Assembly: GCF_018420025.1 (NCBI RefSeq)
Contig: NZ_JAEDAM010000046.1
Location: forward strand, 1-9,073
Direction: 5' to 3'
From: Candidatus Vampirococcus lugosii
Lineage (GTDB): Bacteria > Patescibacteriota > Gracilibacteria > Absconditabacterales > Absconditicoccaceae
Length of the DNA stretch: 9,073 bases
The position numbers and the translations under genes were made by a program. Within the stretch, counting starts at the first letter, position 1; the number at the start of each line of letters is the position of its first letter. The notes beneath the pieces are model-generated. The model was not told where the DNA came from, did not search any database, and saw only the letters and a list, made by a program, of their open reading frames with translations. Positions 1 through 8,761 of this stretch are shown piece by piece.

Positions 1-3000
1 ATTTTCATTTTCATATAAATCAATCAAAATTGTTTTATAATTCAATAAAGATTTATTATTGAATTCATAATTAATATTATGAAACTTTGATAAATTTGAG
101 TAAAATTTATTTATTTGAATAGGGGAGTATGGATTGAATTTATTATTTTCTGTTCATAAAATTCAAACTCAACATGTCCATCTAATACTTGAATCATAAA
201 TTCAATCTAAATTTCAAATATCTGTAATATAACATCATTTGTTTGCATTTAAATTAATTATTGAAGTATTATCATTTATAGATTTTATTAATTTTGCTAA
301 TTCTTTTTTTGTAATAATATTATCTAACTTATCAAATATATCTTCTTCTACTACTCAATTTTTTATATAATAATTTATAATATTTTCAATATTATTTTCA
401 TTTTTTTTATTTTTGTTTATTAATTTATTAATTTTTTCATAATTTTCATTAAATATATTATATATATAATCAAATTTTTTATAATTTTCAAAAATAATCT
501 CTTTATAAATAGGATTTCTTGTTTCTAAAAAATAATCTATTCATAATATCATATATTGATAATAAATTAACATTTCTTGATAATATTTATTTCAAGATAA
601 AATTTTATCAAATTTATTAAAATTTATTATTTTATTAAATAAATATAATTTTTCTTTTAATTCTTTATTTTCAATTTTTATTCTTTTATTTATGTTTTTT
701 CATTTTTTTTCATAAATTATTTTTTCTAAAATTTTATTTATAGCTTCGTTTTTATTATTTTTTTCTAATTTTTTATTTTTTTGATCTTCTTTTACTTTTT
801 TATTTTCCTGTTTGTCATTTTTTTTATCTTTATCTTCTTTTTCTTTATTTTCTTCTTTTTTATCTTTATTTTGATTATTTTCTTCCAATTTTTTATCTTT
901 TTGATTTTCTTTTGGTACTGTCCATCTTGTTCATCCTCAACCTCAAGAAATTCTCTTTTTACAAGAATTTCAAAATTTTGTATATCAAGAATTGCAAGTT
1001 ATTTCCCAATCAGACCAATTTCAATTATGCCAAGTTCTTTTTTTGAATCATCAACAAATATTTTCTTTTTGAGTTTTTCAAACACATTTATTATTTTTCA
1101 ATAAATAATTTTCATCACAAGTTATTTCCCAATCAGACCAATTTCAATTATGCCAAGTTCTTTTTTTGAATCATCAATCAACATTTTCTTTTTGAGTTTT
1201 TCAAACACATTTATTATTTTTCAATAAATAATTTTTATCACAAGTTATTTCCCAATCAGACCAATTTCAATTATGCCAAGTTCTTTTTTTGAATCATCAA
1301 TAAATATTTTCTTTTTGAGTTTTTCAAACACATTTTCAATTTTCACTATGTTCATTATCTCATAAACAAATAGGAAAATATCATTTATATAAGTAATTAT
1401 TTATATTTTTAGCAATAAATGTCTGATCCCAATTATTTTTATCTACTTTTCTTATGTTTTTTATTAACTCATCTATACTTCAAGATTTATTTATAAAATC
1501 TAGATAACTTCCTAAACTTCTACTTTCATCATAAAAATAATATTTTTCATTATTCGCATTATTTTCATATTCATTTTTCCAATTATCAAAGTTTATTCTG
1601 CTTCATATTTTCAAATAAAAAGAATTATAATCAGATTTATTATAATAAATATTATTTTTGAAATTCCATTTATCAATATGTTCATAATCAATAGCTCTTA
1701 TAAAATCATCTTCTCAATCAAAAGATAATATATTTCCAGAAAAAATCATATTTTCTATTTCTCAAAGTTTTCAATTTATTCATTCATAATTATGATCTAA
1801 ATATTCAATTTGTAATCAAATTCAATTTTTTAAATTATGAATAATATTTCAATTTATTGAAACATTTTTTGAAATTCAAGACGAAGAAATTCAATAAACA
1901 TTATTTATTTGATTTTCTTCTTGATTTATAATTAGATTATTTTTTACTTTTCATCAGTCCCAATCAGATATTCAAATTGCCCATCATAAATTTCTATTTG
2001 TAGGTCTAGGCCATCAAATATTAGTAAATATATTATTTTCTATATTTATATCTTGCCAACGAAATTCTGAAGTTAGCCAATCAGATCTTGTATTTCATCA
2101 CATACTAATTCAAATTTCTCATCAAATATATAAATTATTTTTTAATAAAATATTCCAAGATCAAACTGAGCCATCTCAAGTATTAGAAGTAAATTTTGTT
2201 CCTATACTTGCTCATCTAGAAAAAATATTGCCACTAAATACAGAATCAAAAATTCAACTAGCATATACATTATGATTAAACATTGTTGCTTTTCCGTGTC
2301 ATCAAGATCAATCTTGTGAATACCATCAATTATGATCAAAAATATTTTCTTCAAGATTTGCACTTAAACTTGATAAATATAATCATTGAGAGTGTCAGTT
2401 TCAATCACTATAATTATTTAAAATTGTATTTCTTCTAAAATCAAGTCCCCAAATAGTTGTATCATTATTTCAATATCCAGAAATTACATTACTTGTATAA
2501 TAAGAAAATTTATTTCATTCTAACAATATTCATTTTCATTCTCAAACTATTCTCAAACCTCTACTTCAATTAATTCAAGTAAATTCTTCACTATCAGGAT
2601 TTCTTGTATGAGCATAAAATTCTATTCAAGAAATAACTAAATTTCTAAATTCTCAAGTTATAGAAAATCATTGTTCTTTTCAAGTTTTAAATAAAGGCAT
2701 TTTTTTTCATGTTCAATAACTTGTAATTACAAAAGGATTTGATTTTGATTCTCAAAATTTATTTAAATTTCAAAATCATTCATAAAATACACTTCATTTT
2801 TTTATTAATAAAAAATCATTTGAATTATTTCTAATTAAGGAATAAGCTTTCTCAAAAGAATTACAAGAAATTATATTTTGTGGTAAATAAATATTTTCTC
2901 AAATTTCATTTTTTGAATAAGATTTACATTTTTCATCATTTCAATCATTACTTAAATAAACTATTCTTGAATTTTCTGAAGCTTCTAAAATAGTCCATCA

Positions 3001-6000
3001 ATCATTATCTTTTGGTAAATTTAAAAAATATTTTGAGCTATCAACTTTTTTCCTTGGATCAACAGGAACTGTATTGTGATTTTTGTTTACACAAATTGCT
3101 CATAATCAATTATTTTTATTTTCATAATCAAAATTATCAAATTTTTCATCTCAAAAATCAAATCTTTTTGAAATTGCTCTTTCTTCTCAATTTTCATCAG
3201 CAGTCCAAAGATGAAGTCTTGTTCAATTTTGATTTAAAAATCATAAGTCATTGCGAAATCAAGCAAGTCATAAATTATTTATTTTATTATCAATATTTTC
3301 AAAATCTTTATTTTTTGGTAAAGTCCAATTTTTTCATAATAAAGAACAAATTCAATTATTATTTTCTCCAAAAGCAGTTTTCCAAGTATAAAGTCAATAA
3401 AAATCATCAGGACAATTTTTATTAGTACAAGTTGATTTTGACTGTATTATATAAGAATTTTCTCACCAATTATTACATTTTGCTCATCAAGAAAAACATC
3501 TTTTTCAAATTCAAGTATGTTTTACTAATTCTTGAAGCCATAAATTTCAATCTTTCATAATTTCAATATTATAATTATAATCTATTCATTCAATATTTAC
3601 TTTTAATATTCATTTATCTCAAATTTTTGTTCAATCTCAATTAGTCCATTTAATAGTATTTTCTTGAAAAGAAAAGTTTTCTATTTTTTCTCAAACACTT
3701 ACAAATACTGGACTTGTTCAAATTTCTAAATTTATATTATTATCATTTATATTTATTATTTCTTGAAAATAATTTATACTATCAGTTCAAAGTTTTTCAA
3801 AAAGTGCTTTATTGTAATCATTTATTTGTAAATCATAATTTCTTGTTTGTCAGTTTTCAATATTTGGATCCCAAATAGCAAAAGTTTTTTTATCATTTTC
3901 TTTTGATTTAAAAGAAAAAATATATAAATCTTCATCTTCAGAAATAATTTTATCAAAATACATATCTCACAATATTTTTTTTAAACTTATTACAGAATAA
4001 TAAGATTGTTTTGGAGTCCAATCTCATTTTGGTCAAGTAAGTCAAGAACTTGAATGTTTAGTAGTATTTTCAGGATTTACATCTCTTAACATATACATAG
4101 AAATTTTATCAAGTCATGTAGATAATCATATCAAATATCATCTAACAATCCAATTTGCTTGATTTTGTTCATTAATAGCAGTATATTCAGATTTAGGATT
4201 AGTATCCCAACCAAATTCTGTAAGCCAGACTTGTTTATCAGGATAATTTGTATTTCTCCATAAAACTATTTCTCTTAATCTTTCAAAATAATCATTTTTT
4301 TCAGGAGCTTTATCAGTATTATAAGAATGAAAATTAATTACATCAGGAACAAATTTTTTATCATCACGATTTGCTTCAAACCATATTTTCATAAGATTTA
4401 AATAATTTGTCATACTTGAATATCAAACTAATCATCACATAACTAATTTTGAATTAGGATCAGCATTTTTAATTCAAACATTATCTCATAATTTTCATTC
4501 ATGTCAGTCATAATCAGCACTTAACATTGTAGCAAATTCATAAGGAGAAAAGTAAGCATCTCTTCAAGCCCAGTTTTTGTTTGGTTCATTAAAATTTTCA
4601 AAATATTTAATATATCCAAGTCATGATTTTTTTTCTTGATTATCAGCAAGTAATAATTTATCTTCATCAACTTTATTACTTCAATATCTTGCCACAAACT
4701 GAAACATATGTTTTGCATGTTCAATATATGAAGCAGGATCCAAAGGATCTTTTCATTCTTTTATAGGTTTATTATTATGATTTGAATATTCTTTTCAATC
4801 TCATAAAATCCAATTAGCATTTCATTGAATAGCTGGTATTACTTCAATTCATAATTCAGACAAATTTTGATAATAAGCATCAAAATTCCAAATATTATTT
4901 CCACTAGGATTAAACATTTTTTCATTTTTACTTGATCAGTCCCAAGTCATAGAATGATATTCTCTAATATGTCCAAAATTTTTTAATAAATCAATAGGAT
5001 CATCAATAAAAGCATTTAATCAAATAGATTCTCAAATATTTATTCAAAAATCAGGATTTTTTTCAACTGGTTCTTTATCTTTCAAATCTATTTCTTTATT
5101 TAAATATCAATATATTCAAATTTGTTTAATTCAAGAATCAGCATTATCAACGACTAATCTTAAATATCTAGTATTTATATTATCAACTTCTATTATTCTC
5201 CATTTATTATATTTATCAAGTTTTTGAGAAAAGACAAAATCCCATTCAAAAGCTTTTCAAGAATAAACTTTTAATTCTGGATTTCAATTTGAATCAAAAA
5301 ATCAAATATGAGTTATTGTATAATCTCATTTTAAATCTATAATTGCAGATTTTGGTAAATAATCTTTATTTCTAATAGCTTGCCAATTATCTCAAGTAAA
5401 AATTTTTTTTAATTTTTCTTGTGGATTATTTGGAACTTGATCTTGATTATCTACTAAACTATAAGCTTTTGTTATAAAATTATCATGATAATGAGAAATA
5501 TTTTCATCAAATATCATTGATTTATCAAGTTTAATTAATTTTGATTTTTGTGATTCAAGTTTTTCTATAAAATCAATCAAAGCATTATATTTATATCAAA
5601 CTTTTAAATCTTGATTTAAATGAGTTAAAGCTCACCAAGATCAATATTTTGATTGTTTTCATATATCAGTAAAATGTGCAAGTAATCATCATCAATTATC
5701 GCTCCAAGCATTTAACATTAATTCATATAAATCATAAATTCAAGGATTAGTATTTATTTGTTTAAAAAATTCTGTTACTTGTTTATCTTCTTGAGCATAA
5801 GATCAAAGTCAAGAAATATGTTGTCAACCTTCATAAGCTATTAAATTAAGTCAATATTTATCAGCTTTTTCTTTATGATATTTTATTTTTTGAGTTAAAC
5901 TAGGTATTCAAGATCAAGTAAAATATTTTTCTTCTTTTATTTGTTCAAAAGCTTTAGTAAATGCATTTTGTGGAAAATCTTCATTTATTCAATCTTTTCA

Positions 6001-7200
6001 ATCAAGCCAATCTTTTATAATATTTTTATTTTCTTCTTTTTGTAAGCTTCAATTAAAATAAGTTGTTATTGCATAAGAATCAATATTTTCATAACAAACT
6101 TCATTTCATTCTTCAACATAATAAGGACATTCCAAAATTTTTAATTCCATTCCTTCCCAAGCTGTTTGAGTACTTGCTACACAGTTAATTCTTGAATTAT
6201 CATTAAAAACTTGATTTTTGAAAATATTACAAATTTGATTAATTCTCATTCAGTGATATTGCATAAAAGCATCTGCTTTATCTTCTCACCATCTTTCTTT
6301 TCATTTTTTTAATCAATAATGTGCTTGATCAAACATCCAATTCCAAGTTTCGTTACTATATTCTATATAAGAAATTAAATTTTCATTTAAATTATTTTTT
6401 ATTGTTTCTGCAAAATTTTGAATATAATCATCTCAACTTGTATGATGAATTGTAAACCAAGGATTAGAATTTAGTTTATTTGATAATTTAATCATAATTT
6501 CAAGAGGAACTCATTTTGTTGACCAAATACGATCATTTATTTGGGGTCTTTTGTTCCAAGTTGATTGATCTATATCATTGTTTGTTCTCATCCAAACCAT
6601 AAATCTCAAAGTAGAAAAATCTTTTATTATATCAAGCCAATCAGGATTAAAAATTTCATTTTTTTCAAAATTTTTTTTAAATTTTTTGGGGATTATTTTA
6701 ATATTTCTTAAATGATTATTTTGATCAATATCTTTTATTTCAAGCCATAAATAATTATTATTTAATTTTATATGTTTTTCTCAATCTTTTTCTTGTAAAA
6801 TATCAGCTCAAGATATTTTTAAATCTCAATTTCATTCATAATAAATAATATATTCATCATAAGGTATCATTTCTTTTTGATTTCAATGAAAAATTATAGT
6901 CCTTGCATAATCAAAAACTATATCGTTCTCAAATCATTTTATCCATCAATTTTCATCCAAAATTAATTTATCACTTTCTTTAGTATCCCAAGAATTTCAA
7001 TTTTCCAAATTATCACAATTTGTATTTCACCATTCGCATCAAGTTTGCCAATTTGATGCTTGTTTCATAAAATCAATAAAAGGATATTGAGTAGACCAAT
7101 AACTTATTCCTTCTGGGTTCATTCATATAGAAGTATTATTTGCATAACTTGTATTTAGTGTAAATAAAATAAGTGTTAGTAGTAGGATTACTTTTTTCAT
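1..7200 (-). CDS. Giant secreted multidomain carbohydrate-active / adhesin-like protein, over 2400 aa. The 3' end lies beyond the left edge of the window. It is readable only if TGA is a sense codon (Gly, table 25).
   Basis: ATG at 7200..7198 is preceded by an in-frame TAA at 7212..7210. From there 2400 consecutive codons run down to position 1 with no in-frame TAA or TAG, but with about 177 in-frame TGA (hand count). The N-terminus is MKKVILLLTLILFTLNTSYA. Residue n corresponds to the codon whose highest coordinate is 7200-3(n-1). Domain evidence is listed in the sub-features. Confidence 0.9.
646..945 (-). other. Gly5 hinge followed by a K/E/N/D-rich low-complexity stalk (aa ~2086-2185)
   Basis: SGGGGGT is encoded as TGA GGT TGA GGA TGA (931-945). 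It is followed by KENQKDKKLEENNQNKDKKEENKEKEDKDKKNDKQENKKVKEDQKNKKLEKNNKNEAINKILEK... Confidence 0.7.
995..1335 (-). repeat. In-frame tandem repeat with a 123-bp (41-codon) period and about 2.8 copies, encoding a Trp/Cys-rich module
   Basis: Copies lie at 1213-1335, 1090-1212 and ~995-1089. The string caagttatttcccaatcagaccaatttcaattatgccaagttc recurs at 995, 1118 and 1241. Full copies differ by only a handful of bases. The protein unit is KCVGKTQKENI(Y/D/C)GGFKKRTWHNGNWSDWEITC(D/N)xNYLLKNN. Confidence 0.9.
1372..2988 (-). other. Right-handed parallel beta-helix (pectate-lyase-fold / PbH1-repeat) module with its N-cap and C-terminal tail (aa ~1405-1943)
   Basis: The cap is RIVYLSNDGNDEKC ... 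FLLIKKGSVFYEGF ... NPFVITSYGTGKKMPLF. Stacked turns of ~22-25 aa follow: LVISGIEFYA, LRIVGEGKGILLEGNKF, TTIWGLDFRRNTILNNY, GHSQGLYLSSLSANLEENIFDHNGW, ATMFNHNVYASGIFDSVFSGNIFSRG, WNILLKNNLYIGG, QDINIENNIFTNIG, GKVKNNLIINQ, KNVSINGNIIHNL, ENMIFSGNILSF. The tail is LGSYLDFINKSGSIDELIKNIRKVDKNNWDQTFIAKNINNYLYKGY. Confidence 0.65.
3085..3501 (-). other. Cys-containing lectin-like module resembling the Fibrobacter succinogenes major paralogous (FISUMP, TIGR02145-type) domain (aa ~1234-1372)
   Basis: Sequence: CFSGGAKCNNWGENSY..CTNKNCPDDFYGLYTWKTAF..GICSLLGKNWTLPKNKDFENI..LGLAGFRNDLGFLNQNGTRLHLWTADENGEERAISKRFDF..NNGLGAICV. The remembered family layout is YGrLYnW..A, then CP.GWhlP..eW..L, then GF.a.paG.R, then fWs, ending g.svRCv. 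This is a recognition-level call only. Confidence 0.4.
3691..5046 (-). other. Glycoside hydrolase module 2, a clan GH-A-like barrel plus a C-terminal beta-sandwich-like tail (aa ~719-1170)
   Basis: Motifs seen: IGLNAFIDDP, IREYHSMTWDG, FENFNEPNKNW (Glu872, codon 4585-4587), ADYDGHEGKLGDNVG, LVMGGLVG, VINFHSYN, VWLTEFGWDT (Glu995, codon 4216-4218), QANWIVRGYLIGL and SSGLTG..PKQSYYS. The tail is DLYIFSFKSKENDKKTFAIWDP...SPVFVSV. Confidence 0.65.
5104..5400 (-). other. F5/8 type C (discoidin / CBM32-like) carbohydrate-binding module (aa ~601-699)
   Basis: Sequence: FTGDNWQAIRNKDYLPKSAIIDLKGDYTITHIGFFDSNGNPELKVYSGKAFEWDFVFSQKLDKYNKWRIIEVDNINTRYLRLVVDNADSGIKQIGIYGY. This matches the remembered discoidin pattern: W...xxDLxxxxxIxxI, then Y.i..S.dg..W, then aRYlRl, and an ending of IxEIxvyG. 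Confidence 0.55.
5581..7128 (-). other. Glycoside hydrolase module 1, a clan GH-A-like (beta/alpha)8 barrel (aa ~25-540); family not assignable by eye
   Basis: Motifs seen: IGMNPEGISYWSTQYPFIDFMKQASNW, LRFMVWMRTNN, GVPLEIMIKLSN, PWFTIHHTSGDDY, YIEYSNETWN (Asn283-Glu284, Glu codon 6349-6351), LIAYEGGQH (Glu457, codon 5830-5832) and YGSWGAL. An Asn-Glu acid/base followed by a later Glu nucleophile is the GH-A layout. Confidence 0.6.
7141..7200 (-). other. Sec-type signal peptide of the giant protein (aa 1-20), with cleavage likely after SYA
   Basis: MKK is followed by the hydrophobic stretch VILLLTLILFTL and then NTSYA|NN, a small-x-small cleavage pattern. There is no Cys, so it is not a lipobox. 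Confidence 0.7.
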
Positions 7201-7220
7201 AAGTGTTTTTTAAAATGTAA

Positions 7221-7249: not shown

Positions 7250-7470
7250 TTTTCAAATAAATAAATATTTCTAATTAAATTTCATTTTTTATATACTCAC
7301 ATGAAAAAATATTCATTATCAGTTGGTAAATTTAGATTATATAACCTAATCTTTATATCTTCCTTATCTTTTAAAAAAGATATATTTTCTTTTTTAACAT
7401 TTTCAGGAAAATCTCATAAATCATTTAAATGTGTATCTTCTTGGCAATAGCCTAATATTTTTATTATAAT
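7243..7470 (-). other. Open frame segment shifted +1 from the lipoprotein frame, overlapping and extending past the lipoprotein stop; possibly a frameshifted C-terminal extension
   Basis: 76 codons are free of TAA/TAG between TAG 7473..7471 and TAA 7245..7243: IIIKILGYCQEDTHLNDLGDFPENVKKENISFLKDKEDIKIRLYNLNLPTDNEYFFMGVYKKGNLIRNIYLFENW. The only ATG is at 7302..7300, 19 codons before the stop. Confidence 0.3.
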
Positions 7471-8761
7471 CTAATTCAATATAATCATCATTATATTTTG
7501 CATTTTCTAAATATTTGATAATATTATTTTTTTCAAATATATAAAAAATTTTACTTATTCATGGTGCTGGTTCTAAGCTTTCATACATATAAAAATTTGA
7601 TACTTTATCATTAAATTTAAAATTATTTGAATCTAAATTAAAATTAATATACAAATTCTCATTTTTATAATTTATTTCTAATAAGTTATTATATGGACTC
7701 ATATACTTAACTAAATTAAATTTATTTTCATCTAAATTTTCAAATTTATCTCCTAAAATTCTTAAAATATTTTTATTTAAAATATTTAAAATATCTATAT
7801 CTTTATTCTTAATTATTAAATTAATATTAAATCATTTATTAATAATATTATTAATTTTTTCAATTTCATTATTAGTAAAAAGGTATTTATAATATTGTTC
7901 ATTAAAAGTTATTTTATTATTTTGTAAATCAAACATTTTAAATGAAACTCAAAATGACTGATTTATAGATAATTTATAATCTTCAAAATATATTATATAT
8001 TCTGTTCAATTTCTTCAGTGATCTATTTCTTTCAACAACAAAAAATCATAATAAATAAAATTATTATGAAAAAATATAAAATAATATTTCTCATTACAAA
8101 TATTATTTTTACAATATATATAATATTTTCAGTTATTATCTAATAAATCTTTTTTCTCCTCAAAAACATACTCCAAACTATTATTTTTTTCCAAAAAATA
8201 ATTTTCACTTTTTATTTTTTCTCAATTTGAAAAAAATGAAAATTCAAAATTATTACACAAATTTCAATTATTTTTAGAAATATTATAAACAAAAGTTTCA
8301 TCTCATTTATTAAATTGTTGTAAAGTATAAGGATTATCTTCTCAACAACTTCTAACAATTATTTGATCTGGTTCTCATGATTTTATAGTTCAAATTAACT
8401 GATATTTTGGAATACAAAAATCGTCATAATTAAAAATATCTGTATTTTCTTTTAATATTTCAAACTTTTCTTTATCAATTATACAATTATTATAATCAAC
8501 TAATTCTTTTACTTCAAAATCAATTTTCATTAAATTTTCTTTATTTTCTTCTTCTATAACTTTTACTTCTTCATCAATTATTTTAGTTTTTCCCTCTTCA
8601 TCAATTTTATCTTCTTCAGTATATTGACTAACTTTTTCTTCTGATTTTTCATTTTCAACATTCAAATCATGATTACTTTCATCTTTAACCTTTCAACTTT
8701 CTTCTTGATTACAAGCTGATAAAATTAAAGTAAGTGTTATTAATAGGATTATTTTTTTCAT
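7394..8761 (-). CDS. Lipoprotein of unknown function (455 aa under table 25, with 15 in-frame TGA)
   Basis: ATG at 8761..8759 is preceded by an in-frame TAA at 8779..8777. The stop is TAA at 7396..7394, and no other TAA or TAG occurs in frame. The N-terminus MKKIILLITLTLILSAC has the lipobox L-S-A-C (Cys17 codon 8711-8713). An acidic E/K-rich linker (aa ~18-75) precedes an N/Y/F/K-rich body with scattered Cys. The gene is co-oriented with and directly upstream of the giant gene. Confidence 0.8.

Follow-up and report, generated by a model that had tools for sequence, protein, structure and literature searches.

The 9,073-bp contig NZ_JAEDAM010000046.1 of Candidatus Vampirococcus lugosii, analyzed here over its entire length and referred to below as the window, carries the gene for a giant protein that is probably a Sec-exported surface multi-enzyme polysaccharide depolymerase of this organism. 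Behind one predicted signal peptide, the protein joins two glycosidase-type barrels and a right-handed beta-helix in a single reading frame, together with two lectin-type modules, Cys/Trp repeats, a glycine hinge, a charged stalk and a tail. We labeled its modules A to G in order from the N terminus; coordinates are collected in Table 1.

The window has a GC content of ~20% and, when translated with table 11, contained no open reading frame (ORF) longer than 143 aa anywhere in its 9 kb. Once TGA was read as a sense codon, the minus strand showed one open frame that is 2,403 codons long, running from window position 7209 to position 1. Its first ATG is at nt 7200, three codons past an in-frame stop, and there is no stop before nt 1. 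In the other five frames TAA and TAG together made up 4–8% of codons, so the chance of 2,400 open codons arising at random is about e^-100. The original prediction, which was made from the sequence of this stretch before the present analysis, had described a single ORF on the scale of more than 2,400 aa; the one open frame of 2,400 codons from the ATG stands, with the correction that it lies on the minus strand.

The giant ORF contains 177 TGA, 19 GGN and 61 TGG codons, and TGA accounts for ~90% of its glycines. As a test of the code, we aligned module A with 18 homologous segments from organisms that use the standard code. All nine near-invariant glycine columns in which the query has glycine were encoded by TGA (8) or GGT (1), and all six near-invariant tryptophan columns were encoded by TGG. 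In addition, the table-25 translations were identical to the NCBI records, and the table-4 translation of the upstream ORF was not on record. Table 4, in which TGA encodes tryptophan, is ruled out by both the alignment test and the exact protein look-up. TGA is glycine here, corresponding to code 25 (SR1/Gracilibacteria), and the code under which the protein had originally been read was borne out. The lineage was borne out as well: exact protein matches place the contig in Candidatus Vampirococcus lugosii, and Candidatus Vampirococcus had been cited as an example in the original prediction. A 62-mer of the window had no exact match in the genome, metagenome or viral collections searched.

We ran the whole protein and seven segments of it against Pfam and NCBIfam, and we transferred module folds by alignment from homologues of 35–48% identity, so the sequences that were modeled are those of the homologues and not the window's own modules. 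Module A matched 17 database proteins at 25–35% identity, including one from Naegleria gruberi and several in which the module occurs two or three times, and an exhaustive search with its family profile matched 11,836 cluster representatives at E≤1e-3, with 5,423 of them at E≤1e-30. No relative was found by sequence in Pfam, NCBIfam or the PDB, whether we searched with the window sequence, the family profile or ten compact standalone members. The motifs EYSNE.WN and YEGG are invariant in the family alignment, and the window protein keeps 38 of the 44 near-invariant columns, among them the candidate acid/base N283-E284 in IEYSNETWNW (nt 6366-6337) and the candidate nucleophile E457 in LIAYEGGQH (nt 5844-5818). 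Proteins of the family often hold 2–6 copies of module A, and RTX, PKD, Calx-beta or GH9 modules are fused to them.

The AlphaFold2 model of a 35%-identical module A segment (P0003) had a predicted local distance difference test score (pLDDT) of 87.4 and a predicted template modeling score of 0.89, and consisted of a barrel with an inserted beta-sandwich. All significant Foldseek neighbors of this model in the PDB belonged to clan GH-A (GH53, GH5, GH1, GH10 and GH26), and all were distant, with E-values from 7e-6, template modeling (TM) scores of ≤0.55 and ~10% identity. Counting the N-terminal GxNL strand as beta-1, N268/E269 of the model follow the fourth strand (262-266) and E438 follows the seventh (433-436). 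The model thereby supports a clan GH-A barrel fold for module A, with the Asn-Glu (NE) pair and the glutamate at the expected places, and with it the first GH-A-like barrel of the original prediction. The family resembles the retaining glycosidases of clan GH-A in its barrel, in the invariant NE after strand 4 and in the glutamate after strand 7. It differs from them in having no sequence relation to Pfam, NCBIfam or PDB entries and in the extra beta-sandwich inserted after the first strand.

Correcting the original module list, B and C make up one conserved unit that stands alone elsewhere, and are not two independent modules. Among the matches listed there were at least 120 homologues of the B+C unit, at up to 48% identity, many of them standalone proteins of ~665 aa. 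Others carry dockerin, FN3, type IX secretion system (T9SS) tails or SLH domains, which are accessories of secreted polysaccharide degraders. The discoidin-like character assigned to module B holds in a qualified form: the direct match of the window sequence to PF00754 was weak (E=0.0024, 18.4 bits, below the gathering score of 28.2), with support at the level of the family, in which 3 of 42 members matched PF00754 (up to 1.5e-5) and the family profile matched the 'putative chitobiase' domains 2kd7/3ggl in the PDB at E~0.005.

Module C gave a weak match to PslG (E=5.5e-4, 20 bits, aa 895-1111) that runs through WLTEFGW and extends into the C-terminal beta-sandwich. The B+C family profile matched GH39wh2 (5JVK) at E=0.014, PslG at E=0.21 and also heparanase in the PDB. 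PslG and GH39wh2 were the best matches of module C by sequence among PDB entries. Fifteen of the 42 close family members matched PF11790 (best E=1.7e-7), although the window sequence itself did not, and neither the window protein nor any of the 42 family members matched the GH39 Pfam family (PF01229). PF11790 (Glyco_hydro_cc) is annotated alongside GH128 (PMC9830802), and a barrel followed by a C-terminal beta-sandwich is described for both PslG and 5JVK, two members of GH39 (PMC6933502). The candidate catalytic residues of module C are N871-E872 in YFENFNEPNKNW (nt 4605-4570) and E995 in VWLTEFGWDT (nt 4230-4201); both the NE in FENFNEP and the glutamate in TEFG fall in family columns that are invariant, the window row included. 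The likeness to PslG and GH39wh2 (4ZN2, 5JVK) extends to the barrel with its beta-sandwich, the NE(P) acid/base motif, and WLTEFGW in module C versus WSTEWGW in PslG. Against this likeness, the match is weak, the module C family matches PF11790 (GH128) and not the GH39 Pfam family, and PslG lacks the N-terminal discoidin-like domain. The PslG, GH39wh2 and PF11790 family matches nevertheless support the second barrel with a beta-sandwich tail that had been predicted. We also considered whether A and C could be duplicates of one another and rejected this, as hhalign gave a probability of 0.2% and the two belong to different families.

One standalone B+C homologue, from Pontibacter akesuensis, lies inside a cluster with glycosyltransferases of the GT2, GT4 and PMT_2 types, a polysaccharide deacetylase, GtrA and an ABC-2 exporter. 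PslG is reportedly encoded in the psl operon, and we likened the Pontibacter neighborhood to that placement. Two other B+C homologues were found in unlike contexts, one with SusC/D and a sulfatase and the other with GH39, a sortase and esterases.

The third carbohydrate-active-type module, module E, had 56 homologues at 30–41% identity. Most of these are secreted proteins of ~600 aa that stand alone, and some carry T9SS tails. Its conserved core comprises YAHTRNP, HSQGLYL, LEENIFDHNGWY (nt 2355-2320) and ATMFNHNVY, and the FDHNGW, HSQGLY and NHN blocks are invariant across the family, the window row included. PF13229 was matched by 9 of 44 family members; the window sequence had no Pfam match, and no PDB entry related by sequence was found for the module or its relatives. 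The AlphaFold2 model of a 40%-identical homologue (P0019, pLDDT 88.1) is a right-handed beta-helix of stacked three-strand coils. This model, together with the PF13229 matches, supports the beta-helix that had been predicted. Foldseek neighbors of P0019 were PL6 lyases, HK620/P22 tailspikes, GH136, alginate epimerases, GH87, RbmB and PfbA, all of them distant (TM ≤0.53); the likeness to PL6 is only a distant fold similarity (best E=2.2e-6, TM 0.48). Module E is thus like PL6 chondroitinase B and alginate lyases, the HK620/P22 tailspikes, GH136 and AlgE4/AlgG in fold and overall size. It is unlike these carbohydrate-active beta-helices in that its family has its own invariant FDHNGW/HSQGLY/NHN block and the similarity is distant. 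A phage-depolymerase origin was considered and rejected, since viral structures were no closer than cellular ones and a tblastn search of phage genomes gave no match. Relatives of module E are common in marine metagenome contigs.

On this evidence, A, B+C and E are units that are standalone in other organisms and are fused here in frame behind one signal peptide. The fusion junctions are clean, as at the boundary between D and E. Standalone E proteins begin with a signal peptide followed by L(T/N)LPKDA(N/D)GWTIF, and the giant protein has LNLPKDNDGWTIL at the D|E boundary, which corresponds to the mature N terminus of the standalone homologues. No internal signal-peptide-like hydrophobic core was found anywhere in the giant protein. 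GC content at third codon positions (GC3), the choice of Lys, Asn and Ile codons, and the use of TGA for glycine were uniform over all modules.

None of the other proteins or genomes that we searched contained the same set of modules. In a whole-protein search of 5.8 billion sequences, no protein covered more than 24% of the giant query. A scan of GTDB genomes returned only module A relatives, at 23–33% identity, and a scan of JGI metagenomes returned only module E relatives; both DNA scans rely on a few exact 8-mer peptides, and gene calling with table 11 breaks code-25 genes into fragments.

The 90%-identity cluster of the giant protein also contains MBS8122082.1, another partial protein encoded in this genome. 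It has 357 aa, lies on a 9,342-bp contig and starts at the contig edge inside the third Cys/Trp repeat. Without gaps it matched aa 2052-2400 of the giant protein (window 1-1047) at 96.6% identity, with 12 substitutions, and showed independently the same order of repeat, hinge, stalk and tail. It then extends eight residues (ENENINLK) past the window end and stops. Because the product takes up only 1,071 nt of a 9.3-kb contig, begins in mid-repeat and has no starting methionine, MBS8122082.1 must be truncated at its 5' end, with a real stop at its 3' end. By analogy with this tail, the full giant gene probably encodes ~2,408 aa, with ~8 codons beyond the window. The expectation that the protein continues off the window, where the frame is open at nt 1, therefore held, with the correction that the overhang is probably only these ~8 codons. 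MBS8122082.1 could be either a paralogue that shares the tail or a redundant variant contig, the latter because two contig sets, from multiple displacement amplification (MDA) and from multiple annealing and looping-based amplification cycles (MALBAC), were merged.

As the original prediction had allowed, the giant ORF could itself be an assembly artefact, with several genes joined into a chimera during whole-genome amplification (MDA/MALBAC) and assembly of short reads. Three amplified mini-consortia were the source of the genome, and the contig sets of the different amplifications were combined (Moreira et al. 2021, PMC8080830). The separate existence of A, B+C and E as genes in other organisms, the contig end in low-complexity sequence, and the near-duplicate tail on another contig that starts inside a tandem repeat would also fit a chimera. 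However, the frame is unbroken over 7.2 kb, every junction falls exactly at a domain boundary and leaves no signal-peptide remnant, no module stands apart in codon usage, GC3 or use of TGA for glycine, and the twin contig gives the same repeat-hinge-stalk-tail order. We consider an artefact highly improbable.

The giant protein is on record as MBS8122150.1 / WP_213349410.1, with 2,400 aa and the NCBI label 'hypothetical protein, partial'. In the paper that described the genome, Supplementary Table 1 ranks VAMP_134_102, also of 2,400 aa, second in size and labels it 'NAD(P)-dependent dehydrogenase'; under the same label, Supplementary Data 1 has it as one of 126 genes inferred to have been horizontally acquired (Moreira et al. 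2021, PMC8080830). Our link between MBS8122150.1 and VAMP_134_102 rests on the matching size of 2,400 aa, and the giant protein is almost certainly one of the ten giant surface-type proteins of V. lugosii described there. The ten largest proteins were collectively proposed to be localized to the membrane, to form the fibrous cell surface and to aid host recognition and attachment; most have interaction or adhesion domains, with WD40, TPR, PKD, saposin, DUF11, integrin and fibronectin named (PMC8080830). The giant protein matches this group in its size rank. It is unlike the group in that none of these seven named domains was found in it, and it has three carbohydrate-active-type modules instead. 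The words 'glycoside hydrolase' and 'polysaccharide' are absent from the text of the paper (PMC8080830). The list of acquired genes in Supplementary Data 1 also includes two further entries of beta-helix type, 'pectin lyase, putative' (VAMP_102_119) and 'nitrous oxidase accessory protein' (VAMP_46_157), along with a sulfotransferase and several glycosyltransferases, which hints at a wider acquired glycan toolkit (PMC8080830).

The published label itself offers a different function, that of an NAD(P)-dependent dehydrogenase. All that speaks for it is the label, and the gene labels of the paper were taken from DIAMOND best matches to 2014 databases (PMC8080830). In Pfam, NCBIfam and PDB searches of the whole protein or its segments, with E up to 10, we found no Rossmann-type or dehydrogenase family, and the NCBI record says 'hypothetical protein'. 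We give this function almost no credence, and judge the label to be effectively refuted by these searches.

We next considered what the three carbohydrate-active-type modules may do together. V. lugosii is an obligate predator with a genome of 1.3 Mb that lives epibiotically on its host, separated from it by a gap of ~100 nm filled with fibrous material (PMC8080830). Fibrous material of 20-50 nm also lies between stacked predator cells, several glycosyltransferases are encoded in the genome, and glycolysis is present only from 3-phosphoglycerate onward, so that the organism cannot use sugars (PMC8080830). We propose that barrels A and C would act as retaining glycosidases and that beta-helix E would cleave or modify a polysaccharide, as a lyase, hydrolase or epimerase, with B and D as lectin-type modules and D placed between C and E. 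The stalk and tail may hold these enzymes off the cell, within the fibrous surface layer, where they would cut extracellular glycans, so that the zone rich in polysaccharide that lies between predator and prey is opened or remodeled. The most plausible target would be the capsule, exopolysaccharide or lipopolysaccharide of the Halochromatium host, or alternatively the predator's own matrix; the fibrous material in the gap to the host and that between stacked cells are both candidate substrates. Because V. lugosii cannot metabolize sugars, the purpose would be access or remodeling, not feeding. In A, C and E the protein retains the residues that are invariant in each family, and with them the NE/E pair of each barrel. 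We favor a host-directed depolymerase, with remodeling of the predator's own matrix as the main rival. The original prediction had proposed a machine for attachment to, or degradation of, the host envelope. A role at the surface and host interface is reasonable for an epibiotic predator with a fibrous ~100-nm gap and no use of sugars; the host envelope would be one candidate target and the predator's own matrix the other.

Several points weigh against the protein being a surface depolymerase. No module reached a curated Pfam or NCBIfam threshold, in the whole protein or in any of the seven segments, and modules D, F and G have no family assignment. The fold assignments come from homologues at 35–48% identity. 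The structural neighbors of A and E are distant (TM ≤0.55, ~10–16% identity), so activity and substrate cannot be read from the fold. Some neighbors of the beta-helix are adhesins (PfbA) or epimerases and not depolymerases, and the six homologue neighborhoods were mixed or uninformative and indicated no substrate. No anchor motif was found in the protein, and surface retention is thus assumed. Finally, the giant protein is known here from its sequence alone.

A protein of this kind might instead be a non-catalytic adhesin, in which enzyme-like folds serve only as carbohydrate-binding surfaces for attachment to the host. The assignment of the giant proteins to recognition and attachment (PMC8080830) would agree with such a role, as would the presence of the beta-helix adhesin PfbA among the structural neighbors of module E and of the lectin-like modules B and D. 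However, 38 of 44 near-invariant positions of module A are conserved, and the protein retains the NE/E pair of each barrel as well as the polar block that is invariant in the beta-helix family; such retention would not be expected after catalysis had been lost. We regard a purely adhesive function as quite improbable.

The main rival to a host-directed depolymerase is a self-directed matrix enzyme that trims or remodels the predator's own thick fibrous glycan layer, for example in separating stacked daughter cells or releasing apical cells. Among solved structures, the nearest to module C by sequence is PslG, which is said to process the Psl exopolysaccharide of its own producer, and one standalone B+C homologue lies within a polysaccharide cluster with glycosyltransferases and an ATP-binding cassette (ABC) exporter. 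Self-directed action would also agree with the several glycosyltransferases in the genome and with the 20-50 nm of fibrous material that separates stacked cells (PMC8080830). Nevertheless, the two other B+C homologues are in contexts unrelated to this one (SusC/D with a sulfatase; GH39, sortase and esterases), and many family members carry dockerins, which indicates catabolic use. Moreover, the three different catalytic families suggest a heterogeneous target. We think self-directed action unlikely, and continue to favor the host-directed depolymerase.

A bolder form of the host-directed depolymerase is a 'glycan drill', in which the three depolymerases would be mounted as an array on the stalk and would clear the ~100-nm Halochromatium polysaccharide layer for contact, as a cellular counterpart of the phage tailspike depolymerases. 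In this form A and E would represent large, as yet uncharacterized families of carbohydrate-active enzymes (CAZymes), and the repeat, stalk and tail, present in two diverged genomic copies, would be a lineage-specific display module shared between proteins. We put this forward tentatively, as a doubtful but possible extension.

Table 1. Features predicted in the window, with residue numbers of the giant protein.
Feature	Residues (aa)	Window position (nt)	Strand	Description
Giant CDS		1..7200	minus	2,400 codons, code 25 (TGA=Gly); runs off contig end at nt 1
Signal peptide	1-20	7141..7200	minus	Sec-type, MKKVILLLTLILFTLNTSYA; judged by rule
Module A	21-550	5551..7140	minus	Clan GH-A-type (beta/alpha)8 barrel with inserted beta-sandwich
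Module B	~551-712	5065..5550	minus	Discoidin-like (F5/8 type C) beta-sandwich; N-terminal part of B+C unit
Module C	~713-1185	3646..5064	minus	Second GH-A barrel with C-terminal beta-sandwich; PslG/GH39-like, PF11790-like
Module D	1186-1392	3025..3645	minus	Cys-containing; sub-threshold FISUMP match
Module E	1393-1941	1378..3024	minus	Right-handed parallel beta-helix
Module F	1942-2085	946..1377	minus	41-aa Cys/Trp repeat in three tandem copies (aa 1957-2079, nt 1332-964)
Hinge and stalk	2086-2090 (hinge); ~2096-2180 (stalk)	661..945	minus	Gly5 hinge (nt 945-931) and K/E/N-rich low-complexity stalk
Module G	2181-2400	1..660	minus	N/I/K/Y-rich tail, 220 aa, 13.5% GC
Upstream lipoprotein gene		7394..8761	minus	455 aa, MBS8122151.1; lipobox LSAC

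The remaining parts of the giant protein were largely as first described. The signal peptide is present as MKKVILLLTLILFTLNTSYA, judged by rule, and has no lipobox cysteine. Module D had been called FISUMP-like, and this resemblance appears real but partial. TIGR02145 (FISUMP) matched with E=6.4e-5 and 23.7 bits, short of its curated cutoff of 41.65, over model positions 31-83 of 176, about a third of the model; the core of the match is FYGLYTWKTAF...GICSLLGKNWTLPKNKDF (nt 3402-3301). Module D had no Pfam match. In a search with a composite B-D/F/G query, B+C relatives dominated the matches; no homologues of module D were among the best 120 of 476, and weaker homologues of D, F or G may exist.

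The three 41-aa repeats with Trp and Cys in module F were borne out by Tandem Repeats Finder, which gave a period of 123 bp, 2.8 copies and 97% matches; at the DNA level the first two repeats share 98% identity, and the module matched no Pfam family. The Gly5 hinge that follows is likewise present, and its codons, TGA GGT TGA GGA TGA, alternate between reassigned and standard ones. The charged stalk is evident from its composition (K 34%, E 18% and N 18% over ~85 residues). As had been stated for the N/Y/I/K-rich tail, module G matched no family in Pfam or NCBIfam. By eye, module G resembled the SLH repeats of a homologue (P0147), and we considered it as an SLH anchor; this was rejected, as PF00395 did not match any of three sub-segments at E≤10. 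No transmembrane-like segment was found after the signal peptide within the window.

The lipoprotein gene upstream of the giant gene is on the same strand at a distance of 193 bp; we report it as context only, and a functional link is not implied. After the lipobox, the protein has an acidic low-complexity linker and then a Cys-containing, N/Y/K-rich body, and it matched no Pfam or NCBIfam family besides the lipid-attachment motif. Promoter-like sites in the window were at chance level (31 versus 25.7±5.3 expected), and the window contained no terminator, tRNA or Rfam matches.

In multimodular secreted CAZymes, such as the cellulosomal and Caldicellulosiruptor-type enzymes, one signal peptide is followed by several catalytic and carbohydrate-binding modules with linkers between them. 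The giant protein is like these enzymes in its predicted linked catalytic and binding modules behind one signal peptide, and its B+C homologues often bear dockerins. It is unlike them in that its organism is a 1.3-Mb obligate predator unable to use sugars. The architecture had been thought undescribed. The reading of its modules as enzymes is new, but the protein itself was already deposited, and it was listed in 2021 among both the giant surface-group proteins and the acquired proteins. New here are its interpretation as a triple carbohydrate-active enzyme fusion, the corrected dehydrogenase label, and the placement of modules A and E in large unmodeled families. The result is a testable re-annotation and not a new kind of system.

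The 'NAD(P)-dependent dehydrogenase' label of the second-largest protein of this genome is unsupported, and a correction is due. Whatever the giant protein does, modules A and E are candidates for new CAZy families, and the family of module A spans bacteria and Naegleria, with more than 11,000 sequence clusters and no relative in Pfam, NCBIfam or among solved structures. As for the biology of the predator, murein hydrolases, a hemolysin and a phospholipase are named in the V. lugosii paper, but nothing that acts on polysaccharides (PMC8080830). A surface triple glycanase, if true, would fill a gap in our understanding of how ultra-small predators of the Candidate Phyla Radiation pass the outer glycan layers of their prey.

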